A stretch of 50,245 nt of DNA from positions 1 to 50,245 of the forward strand of contig CALGGV010000013.1 of assembly GCA_937915725.1 (NCBI GenBank), written 5' to 3'. The stretch comes from an uncultured Selenomonadales bacterium (GTDB taxonomy: Bacteria > Bacillota > Negativicutes > Selenomonadales > Selenomonadaceae). The stretch's first letter is position 1. The number at the start of each line of letters is the position of its first letter. The notes under the pieces are model-generated. The model searched no databases, was not told the origin of the DNA, and worked only from the letters and a program-made list of their open reading frames with translations. Below, in pieces: positions 7,108 to 46,882 of this stretch. The position numbers and the translations under genes were made by a program.

Positions 7108-7135
7108 CAAATTTTTTAACCGTAAAATTTTTAAG

Positions 7136-7166: not shown

Positions 7167-7185
7167 GTGTACAAATTCCTTAACA

Positions 7186-7213
7186 TTGACAAAACAAGAT
7201 AAGATTTTATAAT
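7186..7213 (+). promoter_or_regulatory. Sigma-70-type promoter candidate for the second MCP gene
   Basis: TTGACA (7186-7191), 16-nt spacer, TATAAT (7208-7213). Confidence 0.55.
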
Positions 7214-7258
7214 TCTATTGTACATAAATAAATCCATCAAAGAAAGGGGAAATTTTAG

Positions 7259-19171: not shown

Positions 19172-21210
19172 TTCACAACCTCAAAAATATTTGGCAAAAT
19201 CAAACGCTGTTTAAATTTTTCGCTAAGTTCAAGCCTGCCCCTTATGTATTCGCCGAGCATTGGTTCAATTTTTTTGCTCCAGTCTTTTTTGTCAACATTA
19301 TCCCAATCCAGCATTAAATTTAATTCTTCCAAAATTTTTTCCCACGCCTCAAACATTCCTTGACTTTTGATATATTTTTTGAAGGCGTCAAGATATTTTT
19401 CAGCGTCAACTTCTTTATAAGGATTTTTAAAGCCGTTTGAATCGAAAATTTCTGTGTAGGCAGTTTCACTTTCAATAAAAAGTTTTGGCGTAACTTTGAT
19501 ACTGCCGAAACCTAAAGATTTTCCCATTCCGATTTTGTACGCGGGATTTTTTGCGCCATTTAAATTGAAAATCATCATAAGTGCGCCGAGTTCAATTTCA
19601 CTTAAATTTTGGAAACGAATTTTAGATTTAAAGCGGTTGCCTTTCTTCAGCGGCGTTAAATCTTTCGTCATACGTTTTTCAGGCGGTTTTCCAACGTCAA
19701 GATTTCTTTCGGCGTCATTCGCCTTCCAATTCCAATTTTTGTTGTGCCAGTAAAGTTTGTAGCCGCGCAGTTTGACAGAATCTTTTTCCCAATGATTTAA
19801 AATTGCGCCGCCTTGCTTTAAATAAAGTTGGTAAGAAGTCGGATTAGGCTGCATAAGTGGATGAGCGGCGGCAGTTTCCATAGTTTCAACAGTAGAAATT
19901 GGTACAGCGTCTTCAAAACAAACGCGGCTTGCCCAATTTTCCTTACTGCCAAAAACCGCGTCCGCAAAATCTATAATTTTTTCACTTTGCAAATTTTCCG
20001 GTACAATATCGCCGATTGAATTTTTGTACGGAATTCTAAAGCATTGCCCGTGCCCAAACGCCGTAACCTGTCCGCCTTCGTATAAAAAATGACACGGTAT
20101 CAAAGATTTAACGTCATCAGGAAGAGAATTACCACAAAGTTTTTCAAGTTGTTCACGTTTCAAAATTCCTCTGTCTGTGAAAAGATTGACGCCGCGCCGG
20201 TTTCTGTCATGTTCATAAGATTTTAAAACTTCGTCCGGCAATTCAATTCTGTGCTTTTCGCTCCAGTCAATATCAGCAAGACTTAAAAAACGAATTATTT
20301 GCTTGCCGTAATTTAATTCTGCATTTTTTTTGGCAATTTCTTCAGCAGTCAACCCTTTCAAACTTGCACGGTATTCTTCGTATTTTTCCCTAGTCAATAA
20401 ATTTTTGTAATTATCTGGTTTTCTTTGCGTATCTGCCCATTGGTTTCCGGTTACAATGTACGCAATTTCACCGTACCATTTAACGCGAGAATCTATAAAT
20501 CTAACCGGACCGAATACTTCTTGAAAATCTTTAATCATAATAAAATCATTTTTGCGCTCAATATTAGGTTTCAGCGGCGCAATAAAATATTTGTTGTCTG
20601 TAGTTTGAATCAGAAAACCGGGACGCGCATTTTTGCCTTTTTCGCCTTCCATTCTTGCCTTGTAGGTGTTGCATAAATCTTCCATCCATTTTGGCGCGCC
20701 ACTTGGAGCCATTAAACACCGAAAATAAATATGCTCGTCATTAAAATCTTCGCCCTTGCCTTGCGATTTTGTACCGCCACGAAACGCGCCGCAAGTTACA
20801 ATTTTAAAAATATTTTTGAACATACCGCGCAGAGAACTTCCGGAAATTATAAATTTATCGACGGGCGCAAAACTTTTTTTACCATTGCCGCCAAAAAATA
20901 ACGGAGTCCAATTTTCAATTTCAAGTTCAATTTCGCCGCTGATTTTTCCAAATTTTTTAATGTGATCTTTGAAATCGTCAACTGTTTCAATTTCTGAAGG
21001 CAAAATTTTTTCAGGCAGTGAAACAAAATTATAAGGCGCGGTTGCAATTTCTGTTGAAATTTTTGGCGCAAAATGTTTAACGGGAGCATTTTTTTTAGGC
21101 GGCGGATTTTTTTTGCCTTTGCTGTAGGAAAAATTTTTTTGCGCCGGTTTTTCTTTCGGCAATGCTACGCCGCCAAATTTTGCTAATTGTTCTCTCCAAT
21201 CTTCAGCCAA
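19168..21210 (-). CDS. Large type III RAMP protein (Cas7-like with a big insertion; TIGR03986-like)
   Basis: Lys/Pro-rich N-terminus followed by APYNFVSLP; RAMP motif ISGSSLRGMFKN; C-terminal G-rich loop GMGKSLGFGSIKV. TTG start with an AAGAAGGTG SD. Confidence 0.65.
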   Translation of the reverse strand: MAEDWREQLAKFGGVALPKEKPAQKNFSYSKGKKNPPPKKNAPVKHFAPKISTEIATAPYNFVSLPEKILPSEIETVDDFKDHIKKFGKISGEIELEIENWTPLFFGGNGKKSFAPVDKFIISGSSLRGMFKNIFKIVTCGAFRGGTKSQGKGEDFNDEHIYFRCLMAPSGAPKWMEDLCNTYKARMEGEKGKNARPGFLIQTTDNKYFIAPLKPNIERKNDFIMIKDFQEVFGPVRFIDSRVKWYGEIAYIVTGNQWADTQRKPDNYKNLLTREKYEEYRASLKGLTAEEIAKKNAELNYGKQIIRFLSLADIDWSEKHRIELPDEVLKSYEHDRNRRGVNLFTDRGILKREQLEKLCGNSLPDDVKSLIPCHFLYEGGQVTAFGHGQCFRIPYKNSIGDIVPENLQSEKIIDFADAVFGSKENWASRVCFEDAVPISTVETMETAAAHPLMQPNPTSYQLYLKQGGAILNHWEKDSVKLRGYKLYWHNKNWNWKANDAERNLDVGKPPEKRMTKDLTPLKKGNRFKSKIRFQNLSEIELGALMMIFNLNGAKNPAYKIGMGKSLGFGSIKVTPKLFIESETAYTEIFDSNGFKNPYKEVDAEKYLDAFKKYIKSQGMFEAWEKILEELNLMLDWDNVDKKDWSKKIEPMLGEYIRGRLELSEKFKQRLILPNIFEVVK

Positions 21211-21808
21211 TTTTTACACCTTCTTTGGAGCAACTGTTCTTACTCATCGCAGTTGCAGGTTCAATCGCCACAAAACGATAATCACTGTAGCCGCAAAGTC
21301 CGGTTTTTTCGTCGCTTGAAATATAATTGCGCGTCAAAAGTCCGTACCATTTAGAATTTTTATCTTCGCAGGGAATTTCCATGCAAAGTTTACGTTGCTT
21401 ATCAAGGAGTTTTATAAAACCGTCGGACACGCTTTTATTTTCGCCCCAGAGCCGCGAAAAACTGTCTACAAAGTACCTTTCGCCGCCTTCGGTATCTTTT
21501 ATATATCTGCCGCAAAAATCGCCGTCAACGCGCTTTAAATGCAATTCTGCAGTTTCGTTAAAAATTCTGCACTCAAGCCAAAATTCCGGCGTAATTTCTG
21601 CGCGCGCAAAAAGTTTTTCGCCTTCAAATTTTCCCCAAATAATATTTTGAATCTGCCACGCCACAAAAACTGCGCGAGCGTTTTTAAATTTTTCCTTGAC
21701 AAGATTTTCAACGACATTCAAAGAAATTTCGCAGTTTATATTTTCAATTTCAGTGGAACATTGGCAAATTTTTAAGCCAACATTTTTTGCAATTTTTAAG
21801 CCGTTCAT
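21203..21808 (-). CDS. csx19: Small type III-D-associated protein (Csx19 / TIGR03984-like, tentative)
   Basis: About 200 aa, sitting between RAMP genes as in III-D loci. ECRIFNETAELHLKR resembles my recollection of the Csx19 motif. Both ends overlap the neighbouring genes. Confidence 0.45.
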   Translation of the reverse strand: MNGLKIAKNVGLKICQCSTEIENINCEISLNVVENLVKEKFKNARAVFVAWQIQNIIWGKFEGEKLFARAEITPEFWLECRIFNETAELHLKRVDGDFCGRYIKDTEGGERYFVDSFSRLWGENKSVSDGFIKLLDKQRKLCMEIPCEDKNSKWYGLLTRNYISSDEKTGLCGYSDYRFVAIEPATAMSKNSCSKEGVKIG

Positions 21809-23121
21809 TCAGATTCACCCCAATTCTTAACAGCCGCGACAAATTCTGAAAGTGCGTCTGTATCGCCTTCAGTAACTTTGCCATTTTCGCCGAGCTTGTA
21901 AGTTTTGCCGTTAAAATTTATTTCGGCGGAAATTCCCTGCAAAGTACCGCGTCCAATGCATTTTTCGCCGCCAATAGCAACTTTTCCCAGCCATAAATCA
22001 CGCAGTAAAAAAATTGCCAAGCCCGCCTCAAAATTTTTTGCACTTAAAATTTCAAAATGTATGTGCAAAGTCGGCGCGTTAATTTTCTGATAAACCGGCT
22101 TAGTTTTGAAAAGCGCGCCCTGCAAAGTTCCGCCGGTAAATCTGTCAATTTTATTTCTTGCGTGTTCAAATTCAGAAACTTTTTCCGGCTCAATGTAACT
22201 TTCAGAAACTATAAAGCGGCTTTTAATTTTTTCGTCGCCTTCAGAATTGCCCATTAAATTATTTAAAAATTTTTCGTCAAGATTCAACTTTTGAAAAATG
22301 TACTCGGCGCGGTGGCGGAAAATTCCTTTCAAACTTGTACCCGGAATTACAAAATCTGAAAGACTTTTCATACTTACAGCCGAAATTTTTTTATTGCGGT
22401 CGTCGTCAGAAATTTCATAGTCTCGCACAATGAATGACGAATTGAATTTAAAATCCGCGTCAACAACAAAATTTTCACTGTCTGCCGAAATAATTTGAGC
22501 GGAGGAAATTTTTTCAGACGCGGTTTTATCTGTAAGCCAAGCGATAACGTCAGCTTTTTTTGTAAAATCGAAAAATTGGGCGTCAATTTCTTCAGCCGCC
22601 GCAAGTCCAAAACCTTTTGCAGTCAACGCGCCTAACCTTATACCGTTTTCAAGTTTGCCCAAAATTTCGGCAATGGTATTTTTAATTTGTTCAATTTCGG
22701 CAAAGTGGCAACCGCGCAAATTTACCAGCATATTAATTTTGCCGCGTGCGCCGCGTTCCACCGCCTCATAATCGTATTTTGCGCCGTCAACGCCCGTACC
22801 CGTCCAGCTGTTAATTTTTACGCCGTCACGGGAAATTATTTCGCCGCCCGTAAGTTCAATATCTTCAATTTGAATCGCACTTTGAAAATTATCCTTGTCG
22901 CCGAAAATTTTTTTGAAAACCTTAGAGCCGCTAAAATCTTCACGCAGGACTCCGCAAATTGAAGTTCCCGGGATAAACGGTACGCCCGCTTGATTTTTCA
23001 AAACGTGAATATCTTTGAAATTGTCAAAATTTTCGCCCGCGCCGTCTCCAATTAAAAGCGGCGATTTTAAAACCAATTCGCCCGTAATTTTAATTTTGCC
23101 GATAATCTGTGAATCAGTCAT
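21805..23121 (-). CDS. Fused double Cas7 (Csm3/Cmr4-like) RAMP protein
   Basis: Two RAMP modules: GVPFIPGTSICGVLRE and VIPGTSLKGIFRHRAEY, with a terminal G-rich loop GGEKCIGRGTLQG. Confidence 0.7.
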   Translation of the reverse strand: MTDSQIIGKIKITGELVLKSPLLIGDGAGENFDNFKDIHVLKNQAGVPFIPGTSICGVLREDFSGSKVFKKIFGDKDNFQSAIQIEDIELTGGEIISRDGVKINSWTGTGVDGAKYDYEAVERGARGKINMLVNLRGCHFAEIEQIKNTIAEILGKLENGIRLGALTAKGFGLAAAEEIDAQFFDFTKKADVIAWLTDKTASEKISSAQIISADSENFVVDADFKFNSSFIVRDYEISDDDRNKKISAVSMKSLSDFVIPGTSLKGIFRHRAEYIFQKLNLDEKFLNNLMGNSEGDEKIKSRFIVSESYIEPEKVSEFEHARNKIDRFTGGTLQGALFKTKPVYQKINAPTLHIHFEILSAKNFEAGLAIFLLRDLWLGKVAIGGEKCIGRGTLQGISAEINFNGKTYKLGENGKVTEGDTDALSEFVAAVKNWGESE

Positions 23122-24643
23122 TTTTGCCGCCGCCTTTCATTGCCGCGTTTTTCCGCGCAAATCTCAAAAAGTTTTGCAGGTACTCATAACAAAATTCATC
23201 TGCAAAATCTGTAAACTTGAAATTAATTTTCTTGAAAAGATTTTCATCGCCGAGCGAAATTGTTTTATTTTCGTAGGGTAATTTTGCCGCGCCGGTCAAA
23301 ATATTATACAGTGTTTGTTCTTCCAGATAAATTTTTTTCAGATTGTCTTGAAAAATGTTGCCGTCCTTACTTTCAGTATTAACTTGTTTACTGAAATTTT
23401 GACGAACATTTTCTTTGCCGACGGTTGAAAGTAAATTGTCAAGGCGTGAGAAAAAGTGCGTAAAATTGCCGCCGCGCAGTTGTGAATTTAATTTTTCGGC
23501 GTCTTCGTGTGCGTAAATTCTCAACTGCTCCAAGTATTTATTAAGCAAAATCTTTCGTGCAATTTCTAAAGTTTCGTCTGAAAAATTTTCCGGTCTTATA
23601 ATTTTCGGCTTTAACTTTGCTAATATGAAATTTTCCGGTTGCCAAAATCTAAGTTGCCCAAAACCTTCTTCAGTGCGCGTACCAAATCCGCTGTACATTT
23701 TTTCGCACAAATTATTTTTATCGGCGTCAGTCAAACTTTTTAAAATTTCAAGTTCAAAAACTGTACCGGCGGCAAGTGCCATAACGCGCGGGCGTTTCAT
23801 TCCCCACGGTACTACAAAATTTTCAATTTCAATTCCGGACGCAAAAATTTTCCCCAACTTAAAATTTTTTTCAAGCTTATCTAAAACTGCAGCCTGTAAA
23901 ATATTTTCAGCACTTATAAAATTATCTTCAATCGCAATTAACGGACTTTCAAGCCGCAAATAAATTTTTTCGCCCAAATTTACCGCCTTAATTTCCTCAA
24001 CCGCGCCAAAACTAAATCTGCACTTGCCGTACTGCGTAAATTTTGAACGCCCGAGCCGCGTCTCAAAAGTTTTATTTTCTAACTCTAATTTGTCAATCAA
24101 AGATTTTTCGCCCAAAATTTCCCCGCAAAAAATCTGTCCTTCTTCCAACGCCTCGTAATTGTAAATGTGCCCTTCCTCACTTTTGCCGGAAATTCTTTCC
24201 TTGCCTTCACTGCGCGACATATGCATAAAAATATTTTTATTTATTGACGCAGTAAAAATTTTTTCGCCGTCAACAATTCCATAACCGCGCAAAGATTTAT
24301 AACCGGCGGGCGGCGTATCTTTCAACAAGTCTGCAATATTATTTTCGTTGCCGGTACCTTTTTTGCCGCGCTGAAGTGAAAGTGGCAAAATAAAACTGCG
24401 CGCGCCGTTAATTTCAGGATTAGCCGAAAGAAATTTTAAGCCGCCATAAAATAATTCTTGAAAATTTTTATCGGCGTGCGCCTTATTGCCCAAATTTTTT
24501 TCTTGCACATAACGCGCCGCCAAAATTCCACGAATTATCGAGCCGCGAATTTCTGAATGACTGCCGGTCATAATTGTTGAATTGCTTGCCGCCGCAATTA
24601 CAACCGGCGATAATGTTTCAATTTTAAATTTAAGCCGGTACAT
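23114..24643 (-). CDS. csx10: Cas5-family RAMP (Csx10-like)
   Basis: N-terminal RAMP motif GSHSEIRGSIIRGILAARY and G-rich loop GFGTRTEEGFGQLRF. The ATG at 24643 is 7 nt after an AAAGGGGG SD, so I prefer it to the listed GTG at 24649. Confidence 0.55.
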   Translation of the reverse strand: MYRLKFKIETLSPVVIAAASNSTIMTGSHSEIRGSIIRGILAARYVQEKNLGNKAHADKNFQELFYGGLKFLSANPEINGARSFILPLSLQRGKKGTGNENNIADLLKDTPPAGYKSLRGYGIVDGEKIFTASINKNIFMHMSRSEGKERISGKSEEGHIYNYEALEEGQIFCGEILGEKSLIDKLELENKTFETRLGRSKFTQYGKCRFSFGAVEEIKAVNLGEKIYLRLESPLIAIEDNFISAENILQAAVLDKLEKNFKLGKIFASGIEIENFVVPWGMKRPRVMALAAGTVFELEILKSLTDADKNNLCEKMYSGFGTRTEEGFGQLRFWQPENFILAKLKPKIIRPENFSDETLEIARKILLNKYLEQLRIYAHEDAEKLNSQLRGGNFTHFFSRLDNLLSTVGKENVRQNFSKQVNTESKDGNIFQDNLKKIYLEEQTLYNILTGAAKLPYENKTISLGDENLFKKINFKFTDFADEFCYEYLQNFLRFARKNAAMKGGGKND

Positions 24644-24645
24644 TT

Positions 24646-25308
24646 TCACGCCCCCTTTGCTATTTTTTCGACTGAAAATTTTTTATCCAAATTTATTATT
24701 TCGCAGGAAATTTTTCCAAAGCCACGATTTCTTTTTGTACCGGCGGCTGTCAAATTTTTTATCGCCAATGCTATTAAATTTAAAATTTTGTCGTTAGGAT
24801 TCAAAATTTCAATCTTGCCAAAAAATTCTACGCCCGCGTTTAAAACGTTCAAATTGTGCAGAGAACCTTTGGCGGCAATTCCATTTTCCAACGCCGTCTG
24901 ATAACGAATTGAAGTAAAAGTTTTCAAAACTTCGGAAGGGCGGAAAATTTCAGGATATTCTTTCTGTAAAAAATCCCATTCGGCGCAAATTTTTTTGTAC
25001 TTGTCAAACGGGCAAATATAAAAATTCGACACAACAATTTGAATATCTGAAACATTTCCCGAATCGTCTGACATTCTGTGAAAAAGATTTTCCGGCGTCT
25101 CCAAATTTTCAGTATCCATTCCGGCAAGTTCAAACATTTCAAAAATTTCAACCGCACTTTCATAAAGCAAGCCCTTAAATCTTTTGGCGGGAAAATAAGG
25201 CAAGCCGTAACTGTCATGAACTATTTCGGCGTCAATATTTACATTTGCTTGACCGGAGCCCAAATGTATTGGCGATTCAACCTTAATTTTTACTTCAAAT
25301 TCTTCCAT
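24646..25308 (-). CDS. Cas7-family RAMP (Csm3-like)
   Basis: GSGQANVNIDAEIVHDSYGLPYFPAKRFKGLLYE and the C-terminal loop GTKRNRGFGKIS. GGAGGTG SD. Confidence 0.7.
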   Translation of the reverse strand: MEEFEVKIKVESPIHLGSGQANVNIDAEIVHDSYGLPYFPAKRFKGLLYESAVEIFEMFELAGMDTENLETPENLFHRMSDDSGNVSDIQIVVSNFYICPFDKYKKICAEWDFLQKEYPEIFRPSEVLKTFTSIRYQTALENGIAAKGSLHNLNVLNAGVEFFGKIEILNPNDKILNLIALAIKNLTAAGTKRNRGFGKISCEIINLDKKFSVEKIAKGA

Positions 25309-26954
25309 TTTTCAGCCACCTCCGGCGAATAAAAATCCATTAATTCTATTGCGTCAACATAGGGCGTGCGCGGCGAATTTTCCGTACTCCACAATAAATC
25401 CGTTATGCAAGTTTCCCAATTCGGCACTACCGGCAACTTTTGCCCTTGAACTTCTAATTGCTGTAAAAATTTTGCTGTATCGTCTTTGCCGCGCTGTAAA
25501 ATTCCCCGCAATTCTTTAATTTTGCCTTGCGTCATAACGTACGGAAATTGCGTTGTGCAGGATAATAAATTTTCGATATTGTAACGGGATTTTTTTTCGT
25601 TGCCGACTTGATAAGGTCCAAAATGCAAATTGCCGCGTGCGCCGGTATATTCACGCTCTCGAATTTGTTCAAGCGTCGGAGCTTGTTCGCCGTGTAAAAT
25701 CGCAAAATCTAACCAACTTGAAATATTTTTTTCAGCGCGCATAGATTCTTTGGCGGCGTCGCAAAGTTGCTCGGCTAATACGTAGCCTCTAAAAAATGGA
25801 TAAGCCGTCGGTAAAATCGCAACGCCCGCGCAACAATCCATTTTCCTTGAAACTTCTTGAGTTAAATTTTCCGGCGAATTTTTGGGCGTTTCCTCGTTCA
25901 AAATTTCCATTAAAGTTTTTGTAAATAAAATTGCCATATTCGCAGGGCAAATGAAAGTTACGTCATCGCCGCCAAGTATCAGCGGGCGTATCGGCAAAAT
26001 TTTTTCATTTTTTAAATCTAAAATATCTGCGAAAAGATTTTCAGTTTTTGCGGCAATAATTTTCAAAAGTAAATCTGCAAACGCGCCTTCAGTTTTTCTG
26101 CGAATTTCCCTTGAAAGTTTGCGCCTTTCCTGCAAATTTTTACAACTGCGAAATTTTACGCCCATATTATTGCCGTCAATGTGAATTATCGCAAAATAAT
26201 TTTCGCCGTCTTTTTGTCCGAGTTCGTCAACTTTTGTTGGAAATTCCCATTCTTCCATTCGCACGGAAGAATTTTTTAATTTAAAAATTTTATTGAAACG
26301 CGCCTTTAAATTTTCATTGGCAACTTTTGAAATTTTCGCCTTAACTGCCGTTTCTTGCGAATAAAATCTAATTTCATCATTCGGCTTTACAATTTTTTCT
26401 GAATCGCAGAAATTCGCCGCCTCGCCGTCAATTTCGCAACTTAAAGTTAAGCCGGTGTAAGGAACATTCACGGCAGGGAAAATATTATTCTGATTATTTT
26501 TCAATTCGCTATAAAGTTCAGAAATATCATCTTGATTCAATTTGCCGTCGATAATATTCAATTCGCCCAACGCCACACCAATTTTTAAGCCGGGGCGTTT
26601 TTCCAAAAGTTTCAAGGAAAAATCTTTGACAACTTCACAGCGTTTATCTTCCTTCGCAGAATCAAAAAGAATTAAAGCATTGCCGCCGCCAATATAAGCC
26701 ACGCAACAACTTTTCATATTTTCCCACGGCGTCTCAATATCTTTTGCGGCGTCCCACACAGTGTCTTCAGCTGACGAAAAATCATCTTCCTCAAAAAAAT
26801 TTTCCAACGTTTCTTTAACCAAAATATCAAAAAAAATTCTGTCCACAATGTACGACGCGCCTATATTTGTTCGCAGTAAATTTCCGGAATAAATGTACCA
26901 CTGAATGGAGCGCGTATCAAAAAGCAACGCGTTATATTTTATTTTCTCTTCCAT
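25290..26954 (-). CDS. cas10: Cas10-like polymerase/cyclase subunit; short form with no HD domain
   Basis: Starts directly with a palm-1-like segment (LLFDTRSIQWYIY...IGASY...YIGGGNALILF). The second palm has AIIHIDGNNMG and an intact GGDD (LILGGDDVTFICP). At 554 aa it has no room for an N-terminal HD nuclease. Confidence 0.7.
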   Translation of the reverse strand: MEEKIKYNALLFDTRSIQWYIYSGNLLRTNIGASYIVDRIFFDILVKETLENFFEEDDFSSAEDTVWDAAKDIETPWENMKSCCVAYIGGGNALILFDSAKEDKRCEVVKDFSLKLLEKRPGLKIGVALGELNIIDGKLNQDDISELYSELKNNQNNIFPAVNVPYTGLTLSCEIDGEAANFCDSEKIVKPNDEIRFYSQETAVKAKISKVANENLKARFNKIFKLKNSSVRMEEWEFPTKVDELGQKDGENYFAIIHIDGNNMGVKFRSCKNLQERRKLSREIRRKTEGAFADLLLKIIAAKTENLFADILDLKNEKILPIRPLILGGDDVTFICPANMAILFTKTLMEILNEETPKNSPENLTQEVSRKMDCCAGVAILPTAYPFFRGYVLAEQLCDAAKESMRAEKNISSWLDFAILHGEQAPTLEQIREREYTGARGNLHFGPYQVGNEKKSRYNIENLLSCTTQFPYVMTQGKIKELRGILQRGKDDTAKFLQQLEVQGQKLPVVPNWETCITDLLWSTENSPRTPYVDAIELMDFYSPEVAEKWKNLK

Positions 26955-27059: not shown

Positions 27060-27088
27060 TTGACAAAATATGGAGCAAGGAATAGAAT
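27060..27088 (+). promoter_or_regulatory. Near-consensus sigma-70-type promoter for the sheath-like operon
   Basis: TTGACA (27060-27065), 17-nt spacer, TAGAAT (27083-27088). A TAAGGAGGG SD follows, 6 nt before the GTG start at 27140. Confidence 0.6.
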
Positions 27089-27139
27089 AAATTAACAATG
27101 AAATAAATCTGAATCGGTTAACGATAAGGAGGGTTTTAG

Positions 27140-29332
27140 GTGGCAAAAATTATTAGCCAGACTAACGCTACGATGCTTTTTGAGGAAATTAATCCTGAAA
27201 AATTAGACTTGCTCACGTTAGTCGGCGATGTCAAAGGCTTTGACAGTTTGTCAGACGAAAAAATTAAGGAAATCCTGGAAACTCTTTGTGTAAAAAATTT
27301 TGATGAGTTCATTGAAAAATTTGATCCCGTTGTTTATTCTTTCTTCAACGCAAACACACAAAAAGTTATGTACACCTTGAAAAAGCCGGAGTCAATACCG
27401 GACGATCTTTTGACTGAAATTCATTTGAATTTGCAAAATGATTTTCTTAGAATGTTGCTTACGCTTGTTGATGCAAAACGTTCTCAAGGTTTACTCAATG
27501 TCGATTTTAAATTTGAAAATTTGACAGATTTAATTTCGCCCCACAAAATTATTGAAGATATTAAGCAAAATCGTAAAGAATTGCGCTATACTTATTCGCA
27601 GTACGTACAACTTGATGACGACGACCCCAAAAAGTTGGATATTGGCGATAAGCTTAACATTATGATGGAAGAGGCTAGCGTCAACTACAATAATGTTATG
27701 GCAATGTTGCCTTTGGCGATTGAGGATATTAAAACGCGGCTGTTACTTTCAAGCGGTGGCGGCGGCGGCGATTCTGCTCCACTTGCATTGGGCGTCTTGA
27801 CTATGGGCGAACAGGGCGAATTGAAAGTTATCGAGGCTCCTAAAGAAGAAAAATCCACTGCCCTTGTTACACTTGATGATAAAGTGAATGAAGGCTTAAT
27901 TGAAGTTATCGGCGAAGATTACGAGGCACTCAACGAAGAAAATCACAACGATTACGTTAAAGCACTTGTAACGCGCACTTTCTGTCCTTTGCCTTCAACT
28001 ATGGTTAGTGAAATTGATATTGCAAAAGAAGTTGAAAATTATAACGCCTATCTGCAATTCTACAAAGAATCTAAAGACGATTTCATTAAAACTGTTAAAC
28101 CGCTGATTGAAAAAATTCTCGGCGTCAGACTTTTCTTTGAACAATATCCTTCAAAATTGCGCGGTATGAGACCAACTTTGCTTATCACAAATATTAGCAA
28201 TGAAATGATGGCTAAGGCTCCAAATATTCCGCGCCTTGTTACTTATCTTAACACTGTAAACGGCAAAAATAATTTTGACAATACAATTTGGTATGCTATT
28301 TTCCCGTCGGTTGCATTTGATGCAGGCAGTAAACCTAAATTGACTCGTCAAAGATTTAAAGGCAATGACGCGCCTACAAATACCAATGTTCACAGCGTTG
28401 AATCCTTAACCAGAATTTTGGACGTTTTAAAAGATTTCCGTATTCAATGTTTCTTCAGTTTCGCCTCAAATGAAAAAAATACTTTCAACGCAATGGCTAC
28501 TGAAGGTATTGAAAAATATATTGATAAATCTTTGCCGCTTACGGCTAAGGCGTTCAGTGAATTTGCTATTCCTTGTTTCCCTAACTTTACTATAATTCCA
28601 AAAGATAAATCCGGCGTTGTTCTTGATACAAAAATGGAAGTCAACGAAAATAATTTGGCTGAAATTTCAAAGGCAAAACAGGATATTATGAAACTTTGGA
28701 TTGACGGCGTTTACGTTGGCGCGGCTTATGTTGCCGCCGGGCTTGTTGCTACTTATCAAGACCCGGAATATCTGAAAATGATTTTCCGTCGTAATATTGA
28801 TAATGAATTGCCGGGCGTTCGTTTCGATATTGAAACCGGCGATAATTCACTTTTGGTTTACACCACGCTTGCCAAAGAAATTACCGGCTTTACCAATCCT
28901 ATCAAAGACGAAATTAACAAAAAATGTTTCGGCTTTGTATTCTCTTCAGAAAATGCAATGTTTAACGGAATGCCAATTACAAACGTTATGGTTTACAAGT
29001 CCAGAAACTTGCTTTACGATGAAGATAACGGCGTTTACGAGCCAATTTATAAAACTCAAGTCACAACTTATATTCAAAGAGTTTTGCGCAATATGTCCAG
29101 CGATTTCAAACAAGATAAAATTGTGCGTTTCTTCAGCAGTAACCCCGCGTCGCAGTCCAGCAAATGGCTTGACAAACGCGAAAGACTCAATGCTATTATC
29201 GGTACCGGCGATGATATTTCTTACAATATTGACGAAGAAAACGGAATTTGCACTTTGAATATCACTTTCAATGGCAATGTTAAAAATCTTGAAATTGAAA
29301 CAAGCCGCACAACTTCTGCAAGACACGTTTAA
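27140..29332 (+). CDS. Contractile-sheath-like protein, apparent TssB(VipA)-TssC(VipB) fusion
   Basis: The N-terminal 170 aa or so carry LLTLVGDVKGF, VKNFDEFIEKFDPVVYSF and VDFKFENLTDLISPHKIIEDI. These are in the same order as the VipA motifs I recall (LLAIGDYT; IDKMTFDEVL; LRFKTLKDFEPENIVQQV). A Gly5 linker (27755-27769) follows, then about 520 aa collinear with remembered VipB landmarks. The call is by eye only. Confidence 0.5.
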   Translation: MAKIISQTNATMLFEEINPEKLDLLTLVGDVKGFDSLSDEKIKEILETLCVKNFDEFIEKFDPVVYSFFNANTQKVMYTLKKPESIPDDLLTEIHLNLQNDFLRMLLTLVDAKRSQGLLNVDFKFENLTDLISPHKIIEDIKQNRKELRYTYSQYVQLDDDDPKKLDIGDKLNIMMEEASVNYNNVMAMLPLAIEDIKTRLLLSSGGGGGDSAPLALGVLTMGEQGELKVIEAPKEEKSTALVTLDDKVNEGLIEVIGEDYEALNEENHNDYVKALVTRTFCPLPSTMVSEIDIAKEVENYNAYLQFYKESKDDFIKTVKPLIEKILGVRLFFEQYPSKLRGMRPTLLITNISNEMMAKAPNIPRLVTYLNTVNGKNNFDNTIWYAIFPSVAFDAGSKPKLTRQRFKGNDAPTNTNVHSVESLTRILDVLKDFRIQCFFSFASNEKNTFNAMATEGIEKYIDKSLPLTAKAFSEFAIPCFPNFTIIPKDKSGVVLDTKMEVNENNLAEISKAKQDIMKLWIDGVYVGAAYVAAGLVATYQDPEYLKMIFRRNIDNELPGVRFDIETGDNSLLVYTTLAKEITGFTNPIKDEINKKCFGFVFSSENAMFNGMPITNVMVYKSRNLLYDEDNGVYEPIYKTQVTTYIQRVLRNMSSDFKQDKIVRFFSSNPASQSSKWLDKRERLNAIIGTGDDISYNIDEENGICTLNITFNGNVKNLEIETSRTTSARHV

Positions 29333-29356: not shown

Positions 29357-29782
29357 ATGGGTTTTAGAGTTTCAATTACCGGCGGCAATGACGTTTCTTT
29401 TGACGAAGGGATTATTACCGGCGTAAACTTTATTTCAGATACGCCCGATAATGCAAATGCAAGATCAACAGACCTTAGCGTCATTATGAAAATTACCGGC
29501 AGAATTAATTTTTCACTCGGCGCAGAAATTAGCGATTCAACCGTTGAATTGGCAAATTGGGCGTTGATGCCTTCAGATCAAGCGGATTGTTACCGCAGTG
29601 TTGAAGTTCAAGTCATAAACGGCGGGCAAGTTGTACGCCAGTATACTTATCCTAACGCCTTTGTTATGGATTACACTGAAGATTTGAACGATGAAGAAGG
29701 CGTCGGTACTTTTACCATTTTGCTGAAACAAAAGAAAGATTTAACGGCAAAAGTGGAACTTAAAGGCAATTTTGAGGCATAA
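29357..29782 (+). CDS. Hcp/TssD-like tube protein candidate, paralog 1
   Basis: 141 aa. The pattern ...W.....YRSVEVQV..GGQVVRQYTYPNAFVMDYTEDLNDEEGVGTFTILLKQ resembles the Bacteroidetes-type TssD (PF17642) layout. It lies immediately downstream of the sheath-like gene. Confidence 0.45.
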   Translation: MGFRVSITGGNDVSFDEGIITGVNFISDTPDNANARSTDLSVIMKITGRINFSLGAEISDSTVELANWALMPSDQADCYRSVEVQVINGGQVVRQYTYPNAFVMDYTEDLNDEEGVGTFTILLKQKKDLTAKVELKGNFEA

Positions 29783-29797: not shown

Positions 29798-30223
29798 ATG
29801 GCATTGGCATTTTCTACGGCAGATCCCGAAATTACGCTTGAAGAAGAAAGTACTAAAAAAATTATTTTCAGAGTCGAAATTCCGCAAGACAGCCGCGCGC
29901 GTACAAAAGATGTTGGCGTAAGTTTAACTGTTATTGGAAAAATTATGGCTGATACTGCACAACTCGGCAACGCGGCTGACAGTACCGCAAAGCTTATGGA
30001 ATGGTCGGTTATTCCGGCAGAGAAAAAAGAGGCTTACCGCAGCGTTACCTTAAAAGTCACAAGCGGCGGAGTTGTTACGCGCCAATATGAACTTCCAAAC
30101 GCTTTTATTGTCGATTATCATGAAGATTTTGAAAGCGATGACGGTATTGGAGAATTTACGCTTGTTCTTAAGCAGATGAAAAATAAATTGGCTGATGTAA
30201 AAGTTACAGGCGGTTTCACCTGA
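29798..30223 (+). CDS. Hcp/TssD-like tube protein candidate, paralog 2
   Basis: 141 aa and clearly paralogous to 29357..29782 (YRSVTLKVTSGGVVTRQYELPNAFIVDYHEDFESDDGIGEFTLVLKQ). Confidence 0.45.
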   Translation: MALAFSTADPEITLEEESTKKIIFRVEIPQDSRARTKDVGVSLTVIGKIMADTAQLGNAADSTAKLMEWSVIPAEKKEAYRSVTLKVTSGGVVTRQYELPNAFIVDYHEDFESDDGIGEFTLVLKQMKNKLADVKVTGGFT

Positions 30224-30301: not shown

Positions 30302-30784
30302 ATGAATTATTATGAAATTCTCGGAGTGGACAGACAGGCAACGGCTCAAGAAATAAAAAAAGCGTATAAAAAGTTGGCGAAAAAGTGGCACCCCGATTTA
30401 AATCGTGACGACCCAAAAACCGCTGAACAAAAAATGAAAGAAATTAATGTTGCTTACACTACCCTTTCAGATGAAGTTGCCAGAATTGACTACAACAAAA
30501 AACTTGACGCCGAAAAGGCAAATTCTGAACATTCTACAAAAACTAAAAAATCTGACGCTCATAAAACCGGAACTGCCAAAAAATCTTCCACCGGTACTTC
30601 AACTGCAGGGGTTAATTTTAAAAATATTCACTCCAGTTTTGAAACTTTTTTCGGTTTTAATCCTAAAACGCACGAAGTTACAAATGAAGATAAATTAAAT
30701 ACATTTTCTGCAAATAAGAAAAAGAAAAATCCGCTTGATACAACAGATTTTTTTGAAAAGTTTATGGGCTTTAAAGTTAAATGA
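30302..30784 (+). CDS. J-domain (DnaJ-like) protein with a Lys/Thr-rich tail
   Basis: [33 protein letters not shown] contains the HPD motif. It has no zinc-finger or C-terminal DnaJ domains. Confidence 0.85.
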
Positions 30785-31320
30785 CACGGTACGATTTTTA
30801 TACGGCTTTAATCGGCATCATCAGTGTATTTTTTTCGCTTGCAATTTATTTCGGCGAAATTAATTTTTATGCAAAAATTTTTCTGATAATTTGCGGCGCG
30901 GCGATTTTTTCTCATTCGACTTTTACTTTGTATCGCATCTTGAAAGAAAAAAATTCTGCGCAAGAAAATTTTTACTCAAAAAATATCAGTCAAATTTCCC
31001 TGTTGAATCAAAAAGGCGAAATTATTTCTTCATGGGAACTTTATGGCAAAAATTCGGCGGTTATCGGAAAAGACTTTGGAGAAAATCAAGTTGATATAGA
31101 TTTAAGCGAAACTCCATACGCGGCAATGATTGATATTGAACACGCGGTTTTAAATTACGCGGACGGGAATTGGTACATTGAAGACTTGGACAGCCAAAAC
31201 GGTATTTCAATAAAAAAATTCGGGCAGGAAGAAATTTATAAATTAAGTTCGTCGCAGCCTTGCAAATTAGATTTTGGCGATATTATTTTTATTGGTGTTT
31301 GCCAACTAAAATTGAATTAG
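30781..31320 (+). CDS. Membrane-anchored FHA-domain protein
   Basis: Two N-terminal hydrophobic helices, then an FHA-like core (SAVIGKD...[30 protein letters not shown]). ATGA overlap with the J-domain gene. Confidence 0.7.
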
Positions 31321-31332: not shown

Positions 31333-31875
31333 ATGAACGGTTTAATTCGCTGTCAAAACGGGCATCTTTTCAGCTCCCGCCGTTACGGTACAATTTGCCC
31401 TTATTGCAACCTTGAAACTGCGACGCCGGAAAAAAAAGAAGTACCTGTGACGGACGAAGAAACTATAAACGCGCTTTTAATGAGTAATATTCGCCCTGTT
31501 TGCGGCTGGATTGTTTGCATTGAAGGCGCACGCAAGGGCAAAGATTACAAAATTCACGCCGGAAAAAATTTTGTCGGTCGCGCAGATGATATGGATATTC
31601 AAATTTTGGGCGATAACGCAATATCCCGCCGCAACCACGCAGTTTTAGTTTACGACCCCAAAAAACATGAAACAGTTTTGTTGCCCGGCGATTCAAACGG
31701 AATTGTTTATTTGAATGACGCGGCTTTATATTCGCCGACAGTTTTGAGCGTTTATGATGTTATCGAACTTGGCAACAGCAAATTTTTATTTATTCCGTTT
31801 TGCGGCGATCATTTTCGCTGGGAAGATTTACCGGAGCAAGACGATAAAAATTATTTGCAGTACGGAAAGGAATAA
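31333..31875 (+). CDS. Zinc-ribbon plus FHA-domain protein
   Basis: N-terminal C..H...CPYC ribbon, and an FHA core (NFVGRADDMDIQILGDNAISRRNHAVLVYDPKKHETVLLPGDSNGIVYLND). Confidence 0.7.
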   Translation: MNGLIRCQNGHLFSSRRYGTICPYCNLETATPEKKEVPVTDEETINALLMSNIRPVCGWIVCIEGARKGKDYKIHAGKNFVGRADDMDIQILGDNAISRRNHAVLVYDPKKHETVLLPGDSNGIVYLNDAALYSPTVLSVYDVIELGNSKFLFIPFCGDHFRWEDLPEQDDKNYLQYGKE

Positions 31876-31880: not shown

Positions 31881-32702
31881 ATGGCGGATATTTTAATTCC
31901 GGCATTTCTTTTTTTGTGTATGGCGGCTTTACATTTTTTGAGAAAAAAAGAAATTTCAACGCCTAAAAATTTTTCTGCAGAATATGAAATTGGCGCGGCG
32001 TCAACTTTCGGCACTCGTGAAATTCAACAAGATTATTTTGGCATAAAGAAAAATAACGGCGTTTTGTTAATGACATTGGCGGACGGTATTGGAGCCGACG
32101 GCGAATTTGCGGCAAAATTGGCTGTCGATACTTTCAGAGATTTATTTGAAAAAGAAAATGCAATTATAAAGCCGCAATATTTTTTTAAACGCGCCGCCAA
32201 TGCCGCTCACAAAAAAATTACAAACACTTTGGAAGAACGGCAAGGCGAAAGTTCAATAGCCGCCGTAATTTTGAAGGACGCGCAATTTTTTTATACTGTA
32301 GTTGGAAATTGCCGCGTTGCAGTTTTTAGGGGCGGCGATTTAGTTCCGGTTTCTGAAGGACAAACTATCGATATTTTGGCAAGACACAGTTACAGCGAAG
32401 GAAAAATTTCAAGGCAAGAAACTTTGGAATTGCTTAATAAACACCGCAGTTATAATTTTTTGGGGCAAGATTCTTTTTCTGAAATTGAATTTTTGAGCAA
32501 GCCGATTGCACTGCAAAAAAAAGATATGCTTGTAATTATGAGCGAAGGAATTTTTAACACTTTACGTTGGGTTGAAATTGAATCCGTCTTGGAAAGAAAT
32601 TTTTCAGCCCAAAATACAGCAGATGAAATTATTAAACTTGTGAATAATTCGCCGATAGTTTCAAAAGACAACGCCACAATTTTAATTTGTCGTTGTCAAT
32701 AA
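31881..32702 (+). CDS. PP2C-family Ser/Thr phosphatase with an N-terminal TM helix
   Basis: LADGIGADGEFAAKLAVDTF, VVGNCRVAVFRGGDLVPVSEGQT, VIMSEGIF and DNATILICR match the PPM motif order. Confidence 0.75.
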   Translation: MADILIPAFLFLCMAALHFLRKKEISTPKNFSAEYEIGAASTFGTREIQQDYFGIKKNNGVLLMTLADGIGADGEFAAKLAVDTFRDLFEKENAIIKPQYFFKRAANAAHKKITNTLEERQGESSIAAVILKDAQFFYTVVGNCRVAVFRGGDLVPVSEGQTIDILARHSYSEGKISRQETLELLNKHRSYNFLGQDSFSEIEFLSKPIALQKKDMLVIMSEGIFNTLRWVEIESVLERNFSAQNTADEIIKLVNNSPIVSKDNATILICRCQ

Positions 32703-33116
32703 TTTAAATTTCAATTCTACGCCGCCTAAAATCGCCGTGAAAGTGTCTTGAAGAATTTTTAGGATTTTTTTACAAAATTTTATTTTATTAACAAGTCGGC
32801 ATTTTAAAACGCCTAGCAAAGAAAGAATCTTTCGCCCTGCAGGTAAAAACGGAGTGCAGCGGGCGTCCTTCGATACTTCAAATATTAAATTTGTAAATAT
32901 ACTCTAAGTAATTTCCTTAAAAAATTTTAAATCCTTTAAATTTTGATTTTAGTGCGTGGAATTTGGCAATAAAATTTTCCAATTTCAGTAACTTAAATTT
33001 CAATTCTACGCCGCCTAAAATTGACGAGAATGTGTCTTGAAAATTTTTTACATAAAATTTACCTTAAAAAATTTTTAAACCCCTTAAATTTTGATTTTAG
33101 CGCGTGTAAAGGTTTA
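32703..33116 (+). repeat. Tandem duplication of a roughly 115-nt segment; the first copy is interrupted by a MITE-like element
   Basis: ttaaatttcaattctacgccgcctaaaat...gtgtcttgaa occurs at 32703 and 32993. ccttaaaaaatttt..aaattttgattttagYgcgtg occurs at 32925 and 33062. The segments are contiguous in copy 2 but separated by the element in copy 1. Confidence 0.7.
32757..32908 (+). repeat. MITE-like structured repeat copy inside the sheath-like operon
   Basis: taggatttttttacaaaatttt...ttaacaagtcggcatttt...cggagtgcagcgggcg...aaatttgtaaatatactctaag. Confidence 0.6.
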
Positions 33117-35264
33117 ATGATGAGAAAATCCAACAGCATTTTTAAAACGGCATTTGTATCGGAGGCGGGCGCGGAACTTGCCAACAATGATTATTTTGCT
33201 TATGTTGAAGATGATGATTTTGCTTGCTACGTTTTGGCGTCGGGCATTACTGATTTTGAAACTTCAGAGGCGGCAAAGGAAGTTGTTGAACATTTAATCT
33301 TGAGTTTTGAAGAAAAGCCGAGTATGTCAAAATCAACTCTTTTGCAATATATGAACGAAACTAACGAAAGACTTTTGAACAGCACTCACTCGCGCAGATT
33401 AAAAGCCTCCGTGATAATGTTGGTTACGGATTATGAAAAATTTCGGTACGTTGCTGCCGGTAATGTCCGCTTGCGAATGTACCGGCAGGGACGTTTTTTT
33501 TTGAAATCTTCGGATATGTCGTTGGCGAATGATTTAATCGAAAAGGGCGAAAGTTATACCCCGCTTGATAAACATGAGGAACGGCATAATTTATACGCTT
33601 ATCTTGGCAAAAAAGATTTTTTTAAGCCTTTTATTTCAAAAGTTCAGAAATTGGCGGACGCAGATATTATTTCTTTGTATTCGCAGGGCTTGTGGGAACA
33701 TGTTGACGAACAAGAAATTGACGAAGTTTTTGCAGAGGCATCGGATAAGCCTCAAGAATCCGTTGATTTTTTGGAAGAAATTTTACTTTCACGTCAGCCG
33801 GAAAATCTGAAAAGTTACACTGTAGCCGCAATTTTTATAGATAAAATTTTTCGTGACCCCGAACGCGAAAGAAAACGTTTGCTTTACATAAAAATTGCCG
33901 TCATTATTATTATCATTCTCATTATAGTGGCAATTATTTTTTATATTTTGGACAGAATTTATCAAGACAAAGTACAAGATTTTGAAAGTACAATGCAACA
34001 ATCGCAAGAATTTATGGCGAATGGAAATTATAAACGTGCGCAAGAAGTTTCAAAAAAAGCTCTGGATTTAGCGCAGGAATTGAAACGCAATGAAGACGTA
34101 AAAAATATACAAGAAGACTTGATGATTTTAGATAATATTGTACAGGCTGATATTGCCTACAATGAAAAAAATTATTCGCTGGCATATGAAGATTATATGA
34201 ATGCTCTGAAATATTCTTCCGGAACTGATAAAGAAATTCGCAATTACATTCAACGCCGTTTGCATATGATTGAAAATCGGCTGGATATTCAGCAATTTCT
34301 GTTGTTGGGCGATTATCTTTTTCAAAATGGCGAATACGACGAGGCAGAATCTTTATATTTGAAGGCGATTGAGAGAGCCTCAACAGTCCACGATAACGAA
34401 GGGCGAAATAGCGCAACAGCCGCGCTTGAAAAAGTTTATGATAAACGCGCTGAACTGCGCAAAGACGCCGAGCAAAAATTAGACGCCAAAAAACAAGCCG
34501 CCTTGAATGACGCACTAAAAAGAGGCGATGATTTATTGGCGGCGGGCGATATTGAGGGCGCAGAAAAAGCTTATCGTGACGCAAGAAACCTTTCAGATAA
34601 TCCTGCAGACCGTACACAAACGGACGCGGCATTGAATAAAATTAATTCAGCACGTGACGACAAGTTGAATAACGCTGTACAAGCCGCGCTGAAAAAAGGC
34701 GATGATTTATTGGCGGCGGGCGATATTGACGGCGCAGAAAAAGCCTATCTTGACGCAAGAAACCTTTCAGATAATCCTGAAGTAAGAATTCAAACAAATG
34801 AAGGCTTAGGAAAAGTTGCAGAGGCGCGGGATAAAAAAATTTTGGAAGAAAGAACTACAGCTGAAGAACGCCAAAAACTTTTTGATGACGCTGTACAAAC
34901 TGAACTTAAGGGCGATTCTGCCTTTGAATCCGGCGATTACGCCTCCGCGCAAATGTACTATATGACGGCTATTGAAAAATTCAGCAATTTATCTGAAGAG
35001 CCAAAAGTTAAAGCTATTCAAAATAAATTCGACGCGTCTAAATCTAAAGAAACTGAATCACACTCTCAAAAAGCAGACGCCGAAAAAGCTGAAGAAAACG
35101 CCCGCAATTTCTACATTGAGAAAAATTTTGCAGAGGCACAGGCGGCGGCAACTCAAGCTAAACAACTTTACAGCGAACTCGGCATGAAGAGTAAAGTTGA
35201 CGAAATGGATATTTTACTTCAACAAATTGCCGTTGACTCTATGATTTCTGATTCCTTAAAGTAG
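33117..35264 (+). CDS. PP2C-like (possibly degenerate) domain, TM helix and helical-repeat (TPR-like) protein
   Basis: The ATG at 33117 lies just past the duplicated segment. The N-terminal domain follows PP2C order but reads ASGITD where DGMGG is expected. TM helix IAVIIIIILIIVAIIFYIL. The C-terminal helical repeats include a near-identical 58-aa duplication. Confidence 0.6.
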   Translation: MMRKSNSIFKTAFVSEAGAELANNDYFAYVEDDDFACYVLASGITDFETSEAAKEVVEHLILSFEEKPSMSKSTLLQYMNETNERLLNSTHSRRLKASVIMLVTDYEKFRYVAAGNVRLRMYRQGRFFLKSSDMSLANDLIEKGESYTPLDKHEERHNLYAYLGKKDFFKPFISKVQKLADADIISLYSQGLWEHVDEQEIDEVFAEASDKPQESVDFLEEILLSRQPENLKSYTVAAIFIDKIFRDPERERKRLLYIKIAVIIIIILIIVAIIFYILDRIYQDKVQDFESTMQQSQEFMANGNYKRAQEVSKKALDLAQELKRNEDVKNIQEDLMILDNIVQADIAYNEKNYSLAYEDYMNALKYSSGTDKEIRNYIQRRLHMIENRLDIQQFLLLGDYLFQNGEYDEAESLYLKAIERASTVHDNEGRNSATAALEKVYDKRAELRKDAEQKLDAKKQAALNDALKRGDDLLAAGDIEGAEKAYRDARNLSDNPADRTQTDAALNKINSARDDKLNNAVQAALKKGDDLLAAGDIDGAEKAYLDARNLSDNPEVRIQTNEGLGKVAEARDKKILEERTTAEERQKLFDDAVQTELKGDSAFESGDYASAQMYYMTAIEKFSNLSEEPKVKAIQNKFDASKSKETESHSQKADAEKAEENARNFYIEKNFAEAQAAATQAKQLYSELGMKSKVDEMDILLQQIAVDSMISDSLK

Positions 35265-46171: not shown

Positions 46172-46882
46172 ATGGCTGACGAAAGATTAATTGTAGCGTT
46201 GGATTTTCACAAAATGGAAGACGTGAAAAATTTGGTAAACGAACTCGGAGACAGTGTAATTTTTTACAAAGTTGGAATGGAACTTTTTTATAGCGTAGGC
46301 GCGGGCGTTGTCGATTGGCTCAAAACTCAAAACAAAAAAATTTTCCTTGATTTAAAACTTCACGATATACCAAATACGGTTGCGGGCGGACTTTGTTCGT
46401 TGATGAATTTGGGCGCAGATATTTTGAATGTACACGCGGCGGGCGGCTTTACAATGATGAAAACTGCCGCCGATAAACTGCGCGAAGAATCAGCAAAGGC
46501 GGGAATTGTCAAGCCAAAATTAATTGCAATAACAATTTTGACAAGCATTAATCAAAATGACTGGAGCGGCTTAGGTTACGATTCATTGAAAATTTCTGAA
46601 CAAGTTGTAAGATTTGCAAAACTTGCGAAAGACGCGGGGCTTGAAGGCGTTGTAGCCTCGCCGCAGGAGGCTAAATTAATTCGTGAAAATTGCGGCAAAG
46701 ATTTTCTGATTGTAACGCCGGGTATTCGCCCTGCAGGCAGTGATATTAACGATCAGAGCCGAATTTCTACGCCTGCCGCCGCAATAAAAAACGGCGCAAA
46801 TTATTTAGTCGTGGGCAGACCGATTCGCGCCGCCGAAAATCCTAAGCTTGCCGCCGAAAATATTTTGGCTGAAATTAAATGA
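46172..46882 (+). CDS. pyrF: Orotidine 5'-phosphate decarboxylase
   Basis: [30 protein letters not shown] and VVGRPI motifs. I prefer the ATG at 46172 to the listed TTG at 46157. Confidence 0.9.

Follow-up and report, generated by a model that had tools for sequence, protein, structure and literature searches.

Systems for type VI secretion (T6SSs) are commonly treated as weapons of Gram-negative bacteria, and the contractile injection systems (CIS) of Streptomyces show that machines resembling phage tails are found in Gram-positive cells as well. All the machines known to us that are built with Hcp, VgrG and PAAR proteins are contractile and require a sheath, and TssB is, to our knowledge, known solely as a part of that sheath. 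In Francisella (T6SS subtype ii), the IglA/IglB sheath is recycled by the general disaggregase ClpB, without a dedicated ClpV, and in Pseudomonas, PpkA, PppA and Fha1 gate assembly by threonine phosphorylation. Here, we analysed a stretch of 50,245 nucleotides of an uncultured Selenomonadales bacterium of the family Selenomonadaceae (contig CALGGV010000013.1; hereafter the whole stretch is called the window), which harbours at positions 27140–29332 (+) the gene of a 730-residue protein that we named X730. A preliminary description had presented this protein as a TssB–TssC sheath fusion with a Gly-rich linker. We propose, with a probability of roughly 0.45, that X730 is the sheath equivalent of an undescribed Firmicutes type VI-like (Hcp, VgrG, PAAR) delivery apparatus. 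The proposal is based on the tube-protein fold of its neighbours, the Hsp70 and J domains encoded in its operon, the conservation of this operon and its association with spike, PAAR, toxin and immunity genes.

In T6SS sheaths of solved structure, the TssB C-terminal helix packs with the TssC N-terminal helices in the surface domain 3, and domain 2 has strands of TssB interlaced with strands of TssC (PMC5807055). Several features liken X730 to the TssB/TssC pair of subtype i (VipA/VipB). Its gene adjoins tube (Hcp) genes, its size is close to that of TssB and TssC combined with a linker, no other protein of its cluster is as well conserved, and its N-proximal part contains three collinear TssB-like motifs. 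In addition, the helices that flank the linker of the X730 model sit where the TssB C-terminal and TssC N-terminal helices make up domain 3 (PMC5807055). As in the H1-T6SS of Pseudomonas, FHA and PP2C regulators are encoded in the operon of the window. Unlike TssB and TssC, however, X730 is one polypeptide rather than two, and it has no Pfam, hidden Markov model (HMM) or Foldseek match to a sheath and no similarity to TssC in the searches described below. The X730 system also differs from subtype i in lacking ClpV, a recognizable TssE/F/G/K baseplate and a TssJLM membrane complex. Its hosts are mostly Gram-positive (monoderm) Firmicutes, the Negativicutes such as this Selenomonadaceae being the exception.

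With Francisella subtype ii, the X730 system shares the absence of ClpV and the presence of a chaperone-type ATPase. Nevertheless, IglA and IglB are two recognizable sheath homologues, and the Francisella ATPase is of the AAA+ type, whereas that of the X730 system belongs to the Hsp70 family and has a J-domain partner. DUF4280 proteins are found near distant members of the X730 family, and Francisella subtype ii is reported to use DUF4280-type PAAR-like tips (IglG; PMC5014421). The Hcp-like proteins of the window are, by sequence and by fold, closest to the TssD-type Hcp of the Bacteroidota T6SS subtype iii, with a weak match to PF17642, and Flavobacterium johnsoniae Hcp1 and Bacteroides fragilis Hcp5 are among their best structural matches. 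Unlike the X730 system, subtype iii has separate, recognizable TssB and TssC proteins, ClpV and TssE/F/G/K. The tube fold of the window also best matches the tube proteins of the antifeeding prophage (AFP) and of the Photorhabdus virulence cassettes (PVC), but genes for the phage-type sheath, gp25, the gp6/gp7 baseplate, the tape measure and the AAA+ ATPase of AFP/PVC and the Streptomyces CIS were undetectable at the loci analysed here. Overall, the X730 system resembles T6SSs in its gene order and in its set of parts, which comprises a tube, a spike, PAAR, effectors with immunity proteins and phospho-regulation, but it lacks recognizable forms of the components by which a T6SS is identified: TssB and TssC, the baseplate proteins, those of the membrane complex, and ClpV.

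The X730 gene starts with a GTG codon located 7 nucleotides past a Shine-Dalgarno sequence, AAGGAGG (27126–27132, +). A promoter-like site of the sigma-70 type, TTGACA-17-TAGAAT (27060–27088, +), lies upstream of the operon and agrees with the consensus at 11 of 12 positions, as a consensus match only. The open reading frame (ORF) and all the peptides quoted from it in the preliminary description are present in the sequence. We located LLTLVGDVKGF at residues 24–34, VKNFDEFIEKFDPVVYSF at 51–68, VDFKFENLTDLISPHKIIEDI at 121–141, TLLITNISNEMMAKAPNIPRLVTYL at 346–370 and FAIPCFPNFTIIP at 475–487. The linker SSGGGGGDS (residues 204–212) is also there, but it spans 27749–27775, and the start initially given for it, 27752, was thus one codon late; the GGTGGCGGCGGCGGC run is part of this segment. 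No membrane helix is apparent anywhere in X730, with a top 19-residue hydropathy mean of 1.56.

X730 is composed of two modules separated by a linker. The N module (residues 1–203; 27140–27748, +) has a small alpha/beta part followed by helices, and its weak likeness to TssB lies in three collinear motifs at residues 21–34, 51–68 and 118–150, with an insertion of ~46 residues between the second and the third. The flexible linker (residues 204–218, which include SSGGGGGDS; 27749–27793, +) is predicted with a local distance difference test score (pLDDT) below 50. The C module (residues 219–730; 27794–29332, +) consists of a beta hairpin, long helices (237–333) and a large alpha/beta domain (345–720), without detectable similarity to TssC or other sheath proteins. 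In the X730 family, the linker is hydrophilic and hypervariable both in sequence and in length (17–37 residues). The Gly run is restricted to the close relatives of the window; the position of the linker is conserved, but not its sequence. Natural variants comprising a single module were found, namely an N-only protein of 284 residues that spans only residues 6–202 (P0266) and, on some metagenomic contigs, a C-only protein of 520 residues that begins just past the linker and spans residues 213–719 (P0225). Since both variants break at the linker, it represents a true module boundary. Another architecture was observed in P0145 (1105 residues; L097:920–4237), in which the N module comes first and ~430 extra residues precede the C module; its gene is directly downstream of a DnaJ-domain gene.

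The two genes that follow the X730 gene code for 141-residue paralogues (29357–29782 and 29798–30223, both +) with 36% identity and the Hcp/tube fold. For the second one, we generated an AlphaFold2 model (pLDDT 74), which we subjected to Foldseek analysis. Its best 50 matches in the PDB all come from tail-like injection machines and are nearly all tube or Hcp proteins, with E-values down to 5e-6. They include the tubes of PVC, AFP and AlgoCIS, the Hcp proteins of F. johnsoniae, B. fragilis, enteroaggregative Escherichia coli and Burkholderia, and monocin, diffocin and phage tail parts. The X730 and Hcp genes are paired in 55 of the 56 long loci, which belong to Negativicutes, Clostridia and Bacilli. 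With these two tube-fold neighbours and this pairing, the type VI-like context initially claimed for X730 was borne out.

The order of the operon genes (X730, two Hcp, DnaJ, two FHA, two PP2C and Hsp70-like) is kept in nearly all of the 80 loci collected, from Selenomonadaceae, Pelosinus, Sporomusa, Lachnospiraceae, Roseburia, Faecalibacterium, Oscillospiraceae, Clostridium, Brevibacillus and others. Between bacterial classes, the X730 proteins are 60–73% identical, compared with 40–55% for the Hcp proteins and 35–55% for the Hsp70-like proteins. X730 is better conserved than any other protein of the operon, as would fit a subunit that makes many interfaces in a polymer. It is also adjacent to Hcp, of the right size, cytosolic and non-enzymatic, and its N terminus is TssB-like. 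All these features make the X730 family the obvious sheath candidate.

Other genes accompany the X730 family outside of the clade of the window. In 42 of the 56 long loci, the gene immediately upstream of the X730-family gene codes for a membrane protein of ~604 residues that is absent from the window clade. This protein (L036:6942–8756; L001:7417–9450, - strand; 41 other loci) has an N-terminal vWA domain with a metal-ion-dependent adhesion site motif; inspection by eye suggests, in addition, a signal peptide, a single transmembrane segment and a cytoplasmic tail. In Brevibacillus, a Ser/Thr kinase gene adjoins the vWA gene. In ~21 loci, genes for proteins of 437 and 230 residues precede the Hsp70-like gene. 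These two families (L045:18446–19759, L001:17571–19534, L098:6551–8529) follow the X730-family and Hsp70-like genes into the most distant clusters, and they are candidates for baseplate-like parts. We compared them and other small ORFs with TssE/F/G/K/A/L/J of E. coli using hhalign; nothing significant was obtained, the templates being single sequences that give low sensitivity.

The genetic environments of the most distant relatives of X730 contain further parts of a delivery apparatus. In L093 and L094, a spike gene coding for a Phage_base_V protein (gpV/VgrG with an oligonucleotide/oligosaccharide-binding fold; E=2e-15) is found directly upstream of a C-module-only homologue, and a gene downstream codes for a 132-residue Hcp-like homologue of those of the window (hhalign probability 99%). 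In L096, the X730-family protein has 730 residues and is 25% identical, and the next gene is Hcp-like (hhalign probability 97%). The gene order in this locus is a fusion of a DUF4280 (PAAR-like) domain with a toxin, Imm11-like, X730 family, Hcp-like, VgrG-like, a 459-residue protein, a homologue of the 230-residue family and Hsp70-like. In L098 and L101, whose X730-family proteins have 676 residues and 29% identity, the Hsp70-like and X730-family genes are followed by those of the 437- and 230-residue families and by genes for two proteins of the VgrG-like type and one with DUF4280 (75.8 bits). Around them lie immunity genes of the PoNi and SUKH types, in arrays, and a gene for a 2,090-residue protein. 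The VgrG-like proteins encoded next to distant members of the family match Phage_GPD and Phage_base_V. Lastly, lysozyme-like and lipase-like genes are found beside the X730–Hcp pair in L002 (Orenia).

Based on the Hcp, spike, PAAR, toxin and immunity genes in their neighbourhood, the X730 proteins thus constitute the large protein that marks a gene system for type VI-like toxin delivery. Two constant partners accompany them, Hcp and the Hsp70-family ATPase, the latter being present across the whole known range, even in the most distant clusters. Unlike the Hcp, VgrG-like and PAAR-like genes, those for FHA and PP2C proteins do not follow the family over very large distances.

We then looked for kinship between X730 and the known sheath proteins. 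Profiles of 10 members each were built for TssB and TssC, with sequences of E. coli O157 Sakai and of nine T6SS loci carried by plasmids; an additional tblastn search of plasmids for divergent TssC proteins of subtypes ii and iii returned subtype i only. With hhalign, the N module (residues 1–215) aligned to the TssB profile with P=0.012 (P=0.012–0.048 over the tests), compared with 0.26 for the reversed control. The alignment passes in order through the three conserved motifs of TssB, whose canonical sequence is LPxxxxVxGD, NFDxxM..P plus a strand, and DFxP followed by a long helix. These correspond to the three landmarks previously pointed out in this region. In hmmsearch with the TssB profile, the family reached a median of 5.1 bits, as against -0.5 for shuffled sequences (empirical P=0.009), and three sub-branches of the family each aligned to TssB over the same regions. 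In a block-permutation test, the real local score was reached by 3 of 60 permutations. The TssB-like landmarks are therefore collinear with the TssB profile as had been noted, but the likeness is weak (P ~0.01–0.05).

A number of results weigh against X730 being a sheath protein. The TssB signal is suggestive, but at the sequence level it falls far short of acceptance in a database-wide search, and in global alignment the score with TssB was no higher than those of permuted controls. Neither X730 nor 51 diverse relatives matched the sheath families of Pfam (PF05591, PF05943, PF18945 and phage sheath) at E≤1. Across these 52 members of the family (24–100% identity), Pfam gave only scattered noise in single members, and NCBIfam, PHROGs and PADLOC found nothing in X730. 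Sequence and profile searches of the PDB with X730 and with two alignments of the family (A1 and A2) yielded only chance-level matches, for example to parvovirus NS1 and ABA-1, and hhalign comparisons with the single E. coli TssB and TssC sequences were not significant.

The C module, which makes up 70% of X730, has no TssC signal by hmmsearch, hhalign or block permutation. Its scores (residues 216–730) in hmmsearch with the TssC profile equal those of reversed and shuffled controls, hhalign gives P=0.47 with 0.75 for the reversed control, and in global alignment 26 of 30 block-permuted templates match or beat the native column order. Because the TssC scores equal those of the controls, the pairings of motifs proposed for this part of the protein, including that of FAIPCFPNFTIIP with LTAPRFLLR, are at chance level. 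We also considered the TssC motifs APRF, PTE..GF, AHYLK and W..YV in the C module and rejected them, as they score like the controls and native order brings no gain.

Structural comparisons are unfavourable as well. The AlphaFold2 model of X730, computed with a 52-sequence alignment, is confident (pLDDT 85.9; predicted template modelling score 0.87). It begins with an N-terminal strand and a small alpha/beta part, continues with helices, the linker and further helices, and ends in a large alpha/beta domain followed by strands at the C terminus. A Foldseek search of the PDB, which includes many sheath chains of T6SSs, extracellular CIS, pyocins and phages, returned no match at E≤1e-3, and its top 50 matches do not include a sheath. 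In BFVD, no match was annotated as a tail sheath; the one significant match is an uncharacterized myovirus protein of 330 residues (A0A8S5V1U9, E=3e-5). Foldseek may overlook very remote folds in which chains are interleaved, and these failures are thus strong but not decisive counter-evidence. Considering the packing described for domains 3 and 2, a covalent link from TssB to TssC is geometrically plausible, and the layout of the X730 model is compatible with the domain plan of TssB/TssC (PMC5807055).

The preliminary description had named, as grounds against the TssB–TssC assignment, the absence of a profile match for either half or a predicted fold unrelated to that of the sheath. Neither half matched at normal thresholds, the confident model retrieved no sheath from PDB or BFVD by Foldseek, and on these grounds the assignment largely fails. 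As a statement of homology, 'TssB–TssC fusion' is unproven; a single polypeptide equivalent to a sheath remains the best guess as to function.

The gene content of the window and the envelope of most hosts are further arguments against a sheath. The window has no spike, PAAR, recognizable baseplate or membrane complex genes, and those for the 437- and 230-residue companions are absent from it. In Pfam searches of the window and the related loci, we detected no TssE/F/G/K baseplate, TssJ/L/M membrane complex or ClpV proteins. The absence of ClpV had already been remarked upon, correctly, as no AAA+ gene of the size of ClpV is found in the window. Finally, the firing of such a machine through a thick Gram-positive wall would need explaining.

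The remaining genes of the operon suggest how a sheath-like X730 might be controlled. The Hcp genes are followed by one for a J-domain (DnaJ) protein of 160 residues (30302–30784, +) and by two for FHA-domain proteins. The first of these (179 residues; 30781–31320, +) has a hydrophobic N-terminal stretch that by eye resembles a membrane anchor, and the second (180 residues; 31333–31875, +), surpassed only by X730 in its conservation within the operon, has an N-terminal Cys-rich, zinc-ribbon-like segment. Next come a PP2C-type Ser/Thr phosphatase of 273 residues (31881–32702, +) and a 747-residue protein (33021–35264, +) with a PP2C-like domain, a hydrophobic, probably transmembrane segment and TPR repeats. 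The start codon of the latter is uncertain: the ORF as listed begins with TTG, 318 nucleotides past the previous gene, and an internal ATG (MMRKSNS...) may be the true start, in which case the gap between the genes would be unusually long for an operon whose genes are otherwise tightly packed. The last gene codes for the Hsp70-family ATPase of 892 residues (35273–37951, +), with the nucleotide-binding domain in its N-terminal half. This protein aligns with residues 3–240 of E. coli DnaK (hhalign probability 95%, E=3.6e-8), and an HMM search of the PDB with it gave no match.

If X730 is the sheath equivalent, the N module would descend from the small sheath subunit TssB or mimic it, the C module would take the place of TssC, and the hypervariable linker would join them where domain 3 would lie (PMC5807055). 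X730 would polymerize around a tube made of the two downstream Hcp-fold paralogues and would presumably contract. The J-domain protein may recruit the 892-residue Hsp70-family ATPase, and by analogy this pair is a natural candidate for a ClpV-like role, in polymer disassembly, and thus recycling of the sheath, or in the control of assembly. The two FHA proteins and the two PP2C phosphatases could gate assembly by threonine phosphorylation, and the Ser/Thr kinase and the vWA membrane protein of other genomes could take part in the same gating. The FHA and PP2C genes and the Ser/Thr kinase and vWA genes of Brevibacillus would then parallel the PpkA/PppA/Fha1 pathway.

A serious, if less probable, alternative is that X730 is part of the type VI-like apparatus, but as a structural or assembly partner of Hcp with a new fold. 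It could, for example, serve as a platform for tube assembly, act as a cap or coat, or be an adaptor through which the Hsp70-family ATPase receives Hcp/VgrG cargo. In that case, either the machine would not contract or a different protein would be its sheath. The confident model without a detected sheath fold and the complete lack of TssC similarity are readily explained in this way. An Hsp70-type motor is unprecedented in contractile systems, and the mechanism may thus differ entirely; moreover, other conserved proteins of the fuller clusters, of 437, 230, 259 and 211 residues, could fill structural roles. Nevertheless, such a machine would depart from the contractile nature established for all known Hcp, VgrG and PAAR systems. 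It is X730, and not the 437-residue protein, that is invariably paired with Hcp and that persists in the reduced operon of the window, and the weak TssB-like motifs are hard to place outside a sheath.

It is improbable that X730 has nothing to do with injection and is a regulator or an enzyme that shares the operon, for instance in a stress or conflict signalling module with FHA, PP2C and Hsp70 proteins. Its NCBI product name is 'transcriptional regulator', signalling and chaperone genes dominate the operon, and Hcp is the sole injection hardware in the window. However, searches of Pfam, NCBIfam, PHROGs, PADLOC and PDB detected no DNA-binding or enzymatic domain in X730, and Foldseek gave no match of meaningful probability to a regulator or an enzyme. 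In addition, the family is accompanied over very large distances by Hcp, VgrG-like and PAAR-like genes rather than by those for FHA and PP2C proteins.

The family history bears on the origin of the single chain. We collected more than 2,400 homologues of X730, which form 546 clusters at 50% identity. Among the best 150 of these clusters, in which two shorter entries were inspected, the proteins appear as single chains of ~670–770 residues down to ~25% identity (identities from alignment A2), in many orders of Firmicutes. The operon is widespread among Firmicutes of the gut and rumen and is present in at least 373 species-representative Firmicutes genomes. The loci closest to the window, 85–92% identical, belong to metagenome-assembled genomes from sheep, goat and deer, which places the window on the chromosome of a rumen Selenomonadaceae. 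A tblastn search of plasmids and phages with X730 gave no match. Since the single-chain form holds down to ~25% identity, a recent fusion is not supported: at the sequence level the single chain is an ancient trait of the family. The preliminary description was thus right about the single polypeptide but not about a joining of two proteins, at least for recent history. That the ORF is a lineage-specific fusion or a sequencing or assembly join at GC-rich Gly codons can be dismissed, as an identical 730-residue protein is on public record (P0001), the single chain is a family-wide architecture and the linker keeps its position while its sequence varies, even though the GGTGGCGGCGGCGGC run is of a kind in which slippage could occur.

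We consider it possible, though with somewhat less confidence than the sheath proposal itself, that Firmicutes own an unrecognized type VI-like subtype with a diverged single-chain sheath, an Hsp70/J-protein pair instead of ClpV, FHA/PP2C gating and PAAR/VgrG toxins. The genera and families concerned, abundant gut and rumen bacteria among them, would include Roseburia, Faecalibacterium, Lachnospiraceae, Selenomonas, Clostridium, Brevibacillus and Paenibacillus. If X730 is a sheath, it would represent a new single-chain lineage with a new recycling principle, and it would offer a tractable way into the function of a phage-tail-like machine behind a thick wall; carriers such as Brevibacillus brevis and Selenomonas ruminantium can be cultivated. 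Otherwise, there would be an Hcp/VgrG system that runs without a recognizable sheath, which would be equally unexpected.

Full-text literature searches did not find this Firmicutes operon described; the papers on conflict systems of the Aravind type cover other systems with Hsp70 and FHA proteins. In public databases, the 730-residue family is called 'transcriptional regulator' and the 141-residue Hcp-fold family 'membrane-associated protease 1'. Neither name is backed by any of the profile or fold searches performed here, and our search for literature on 'membrane-associated protease 1' found none. The current names of both core proteins are therefore misleading.

Other features were identified in the window. 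An effector operon of a type III CRISPR (clustered regularly interspaced short palindromic repeats)-Cas system (18383–26954, -) abuts the X730 operon divergently. It codes for Cas6, several proteins of the repeat-associated mysterious protein (RAMP) type and a short Cas10 of 554 residues in which only the second palm domain was detected. Tandem Repeats Finder found no CRISPR array in the whole window. A HaeIII-type restriction-modification pair is located at 46879–48844, with an intact C5 cytosine methylase of 336 residues. The RE_HaeIII endonuclease is broken up into two ORFs that overlap (47886–48365 and 48362–48844) and cover profile positions 1–150 and 155–298, respectively. A frameshift is therefore probable, and the methylase would be left as an orphan. 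Lastly, two tandem genes at 5359–9010 code for similar methyl-accepting chemotaxis proteins of 582 and 583 residues, and a third, shorter gene of this type (17080–18225) is found just before the CRISPR-Cas operon.

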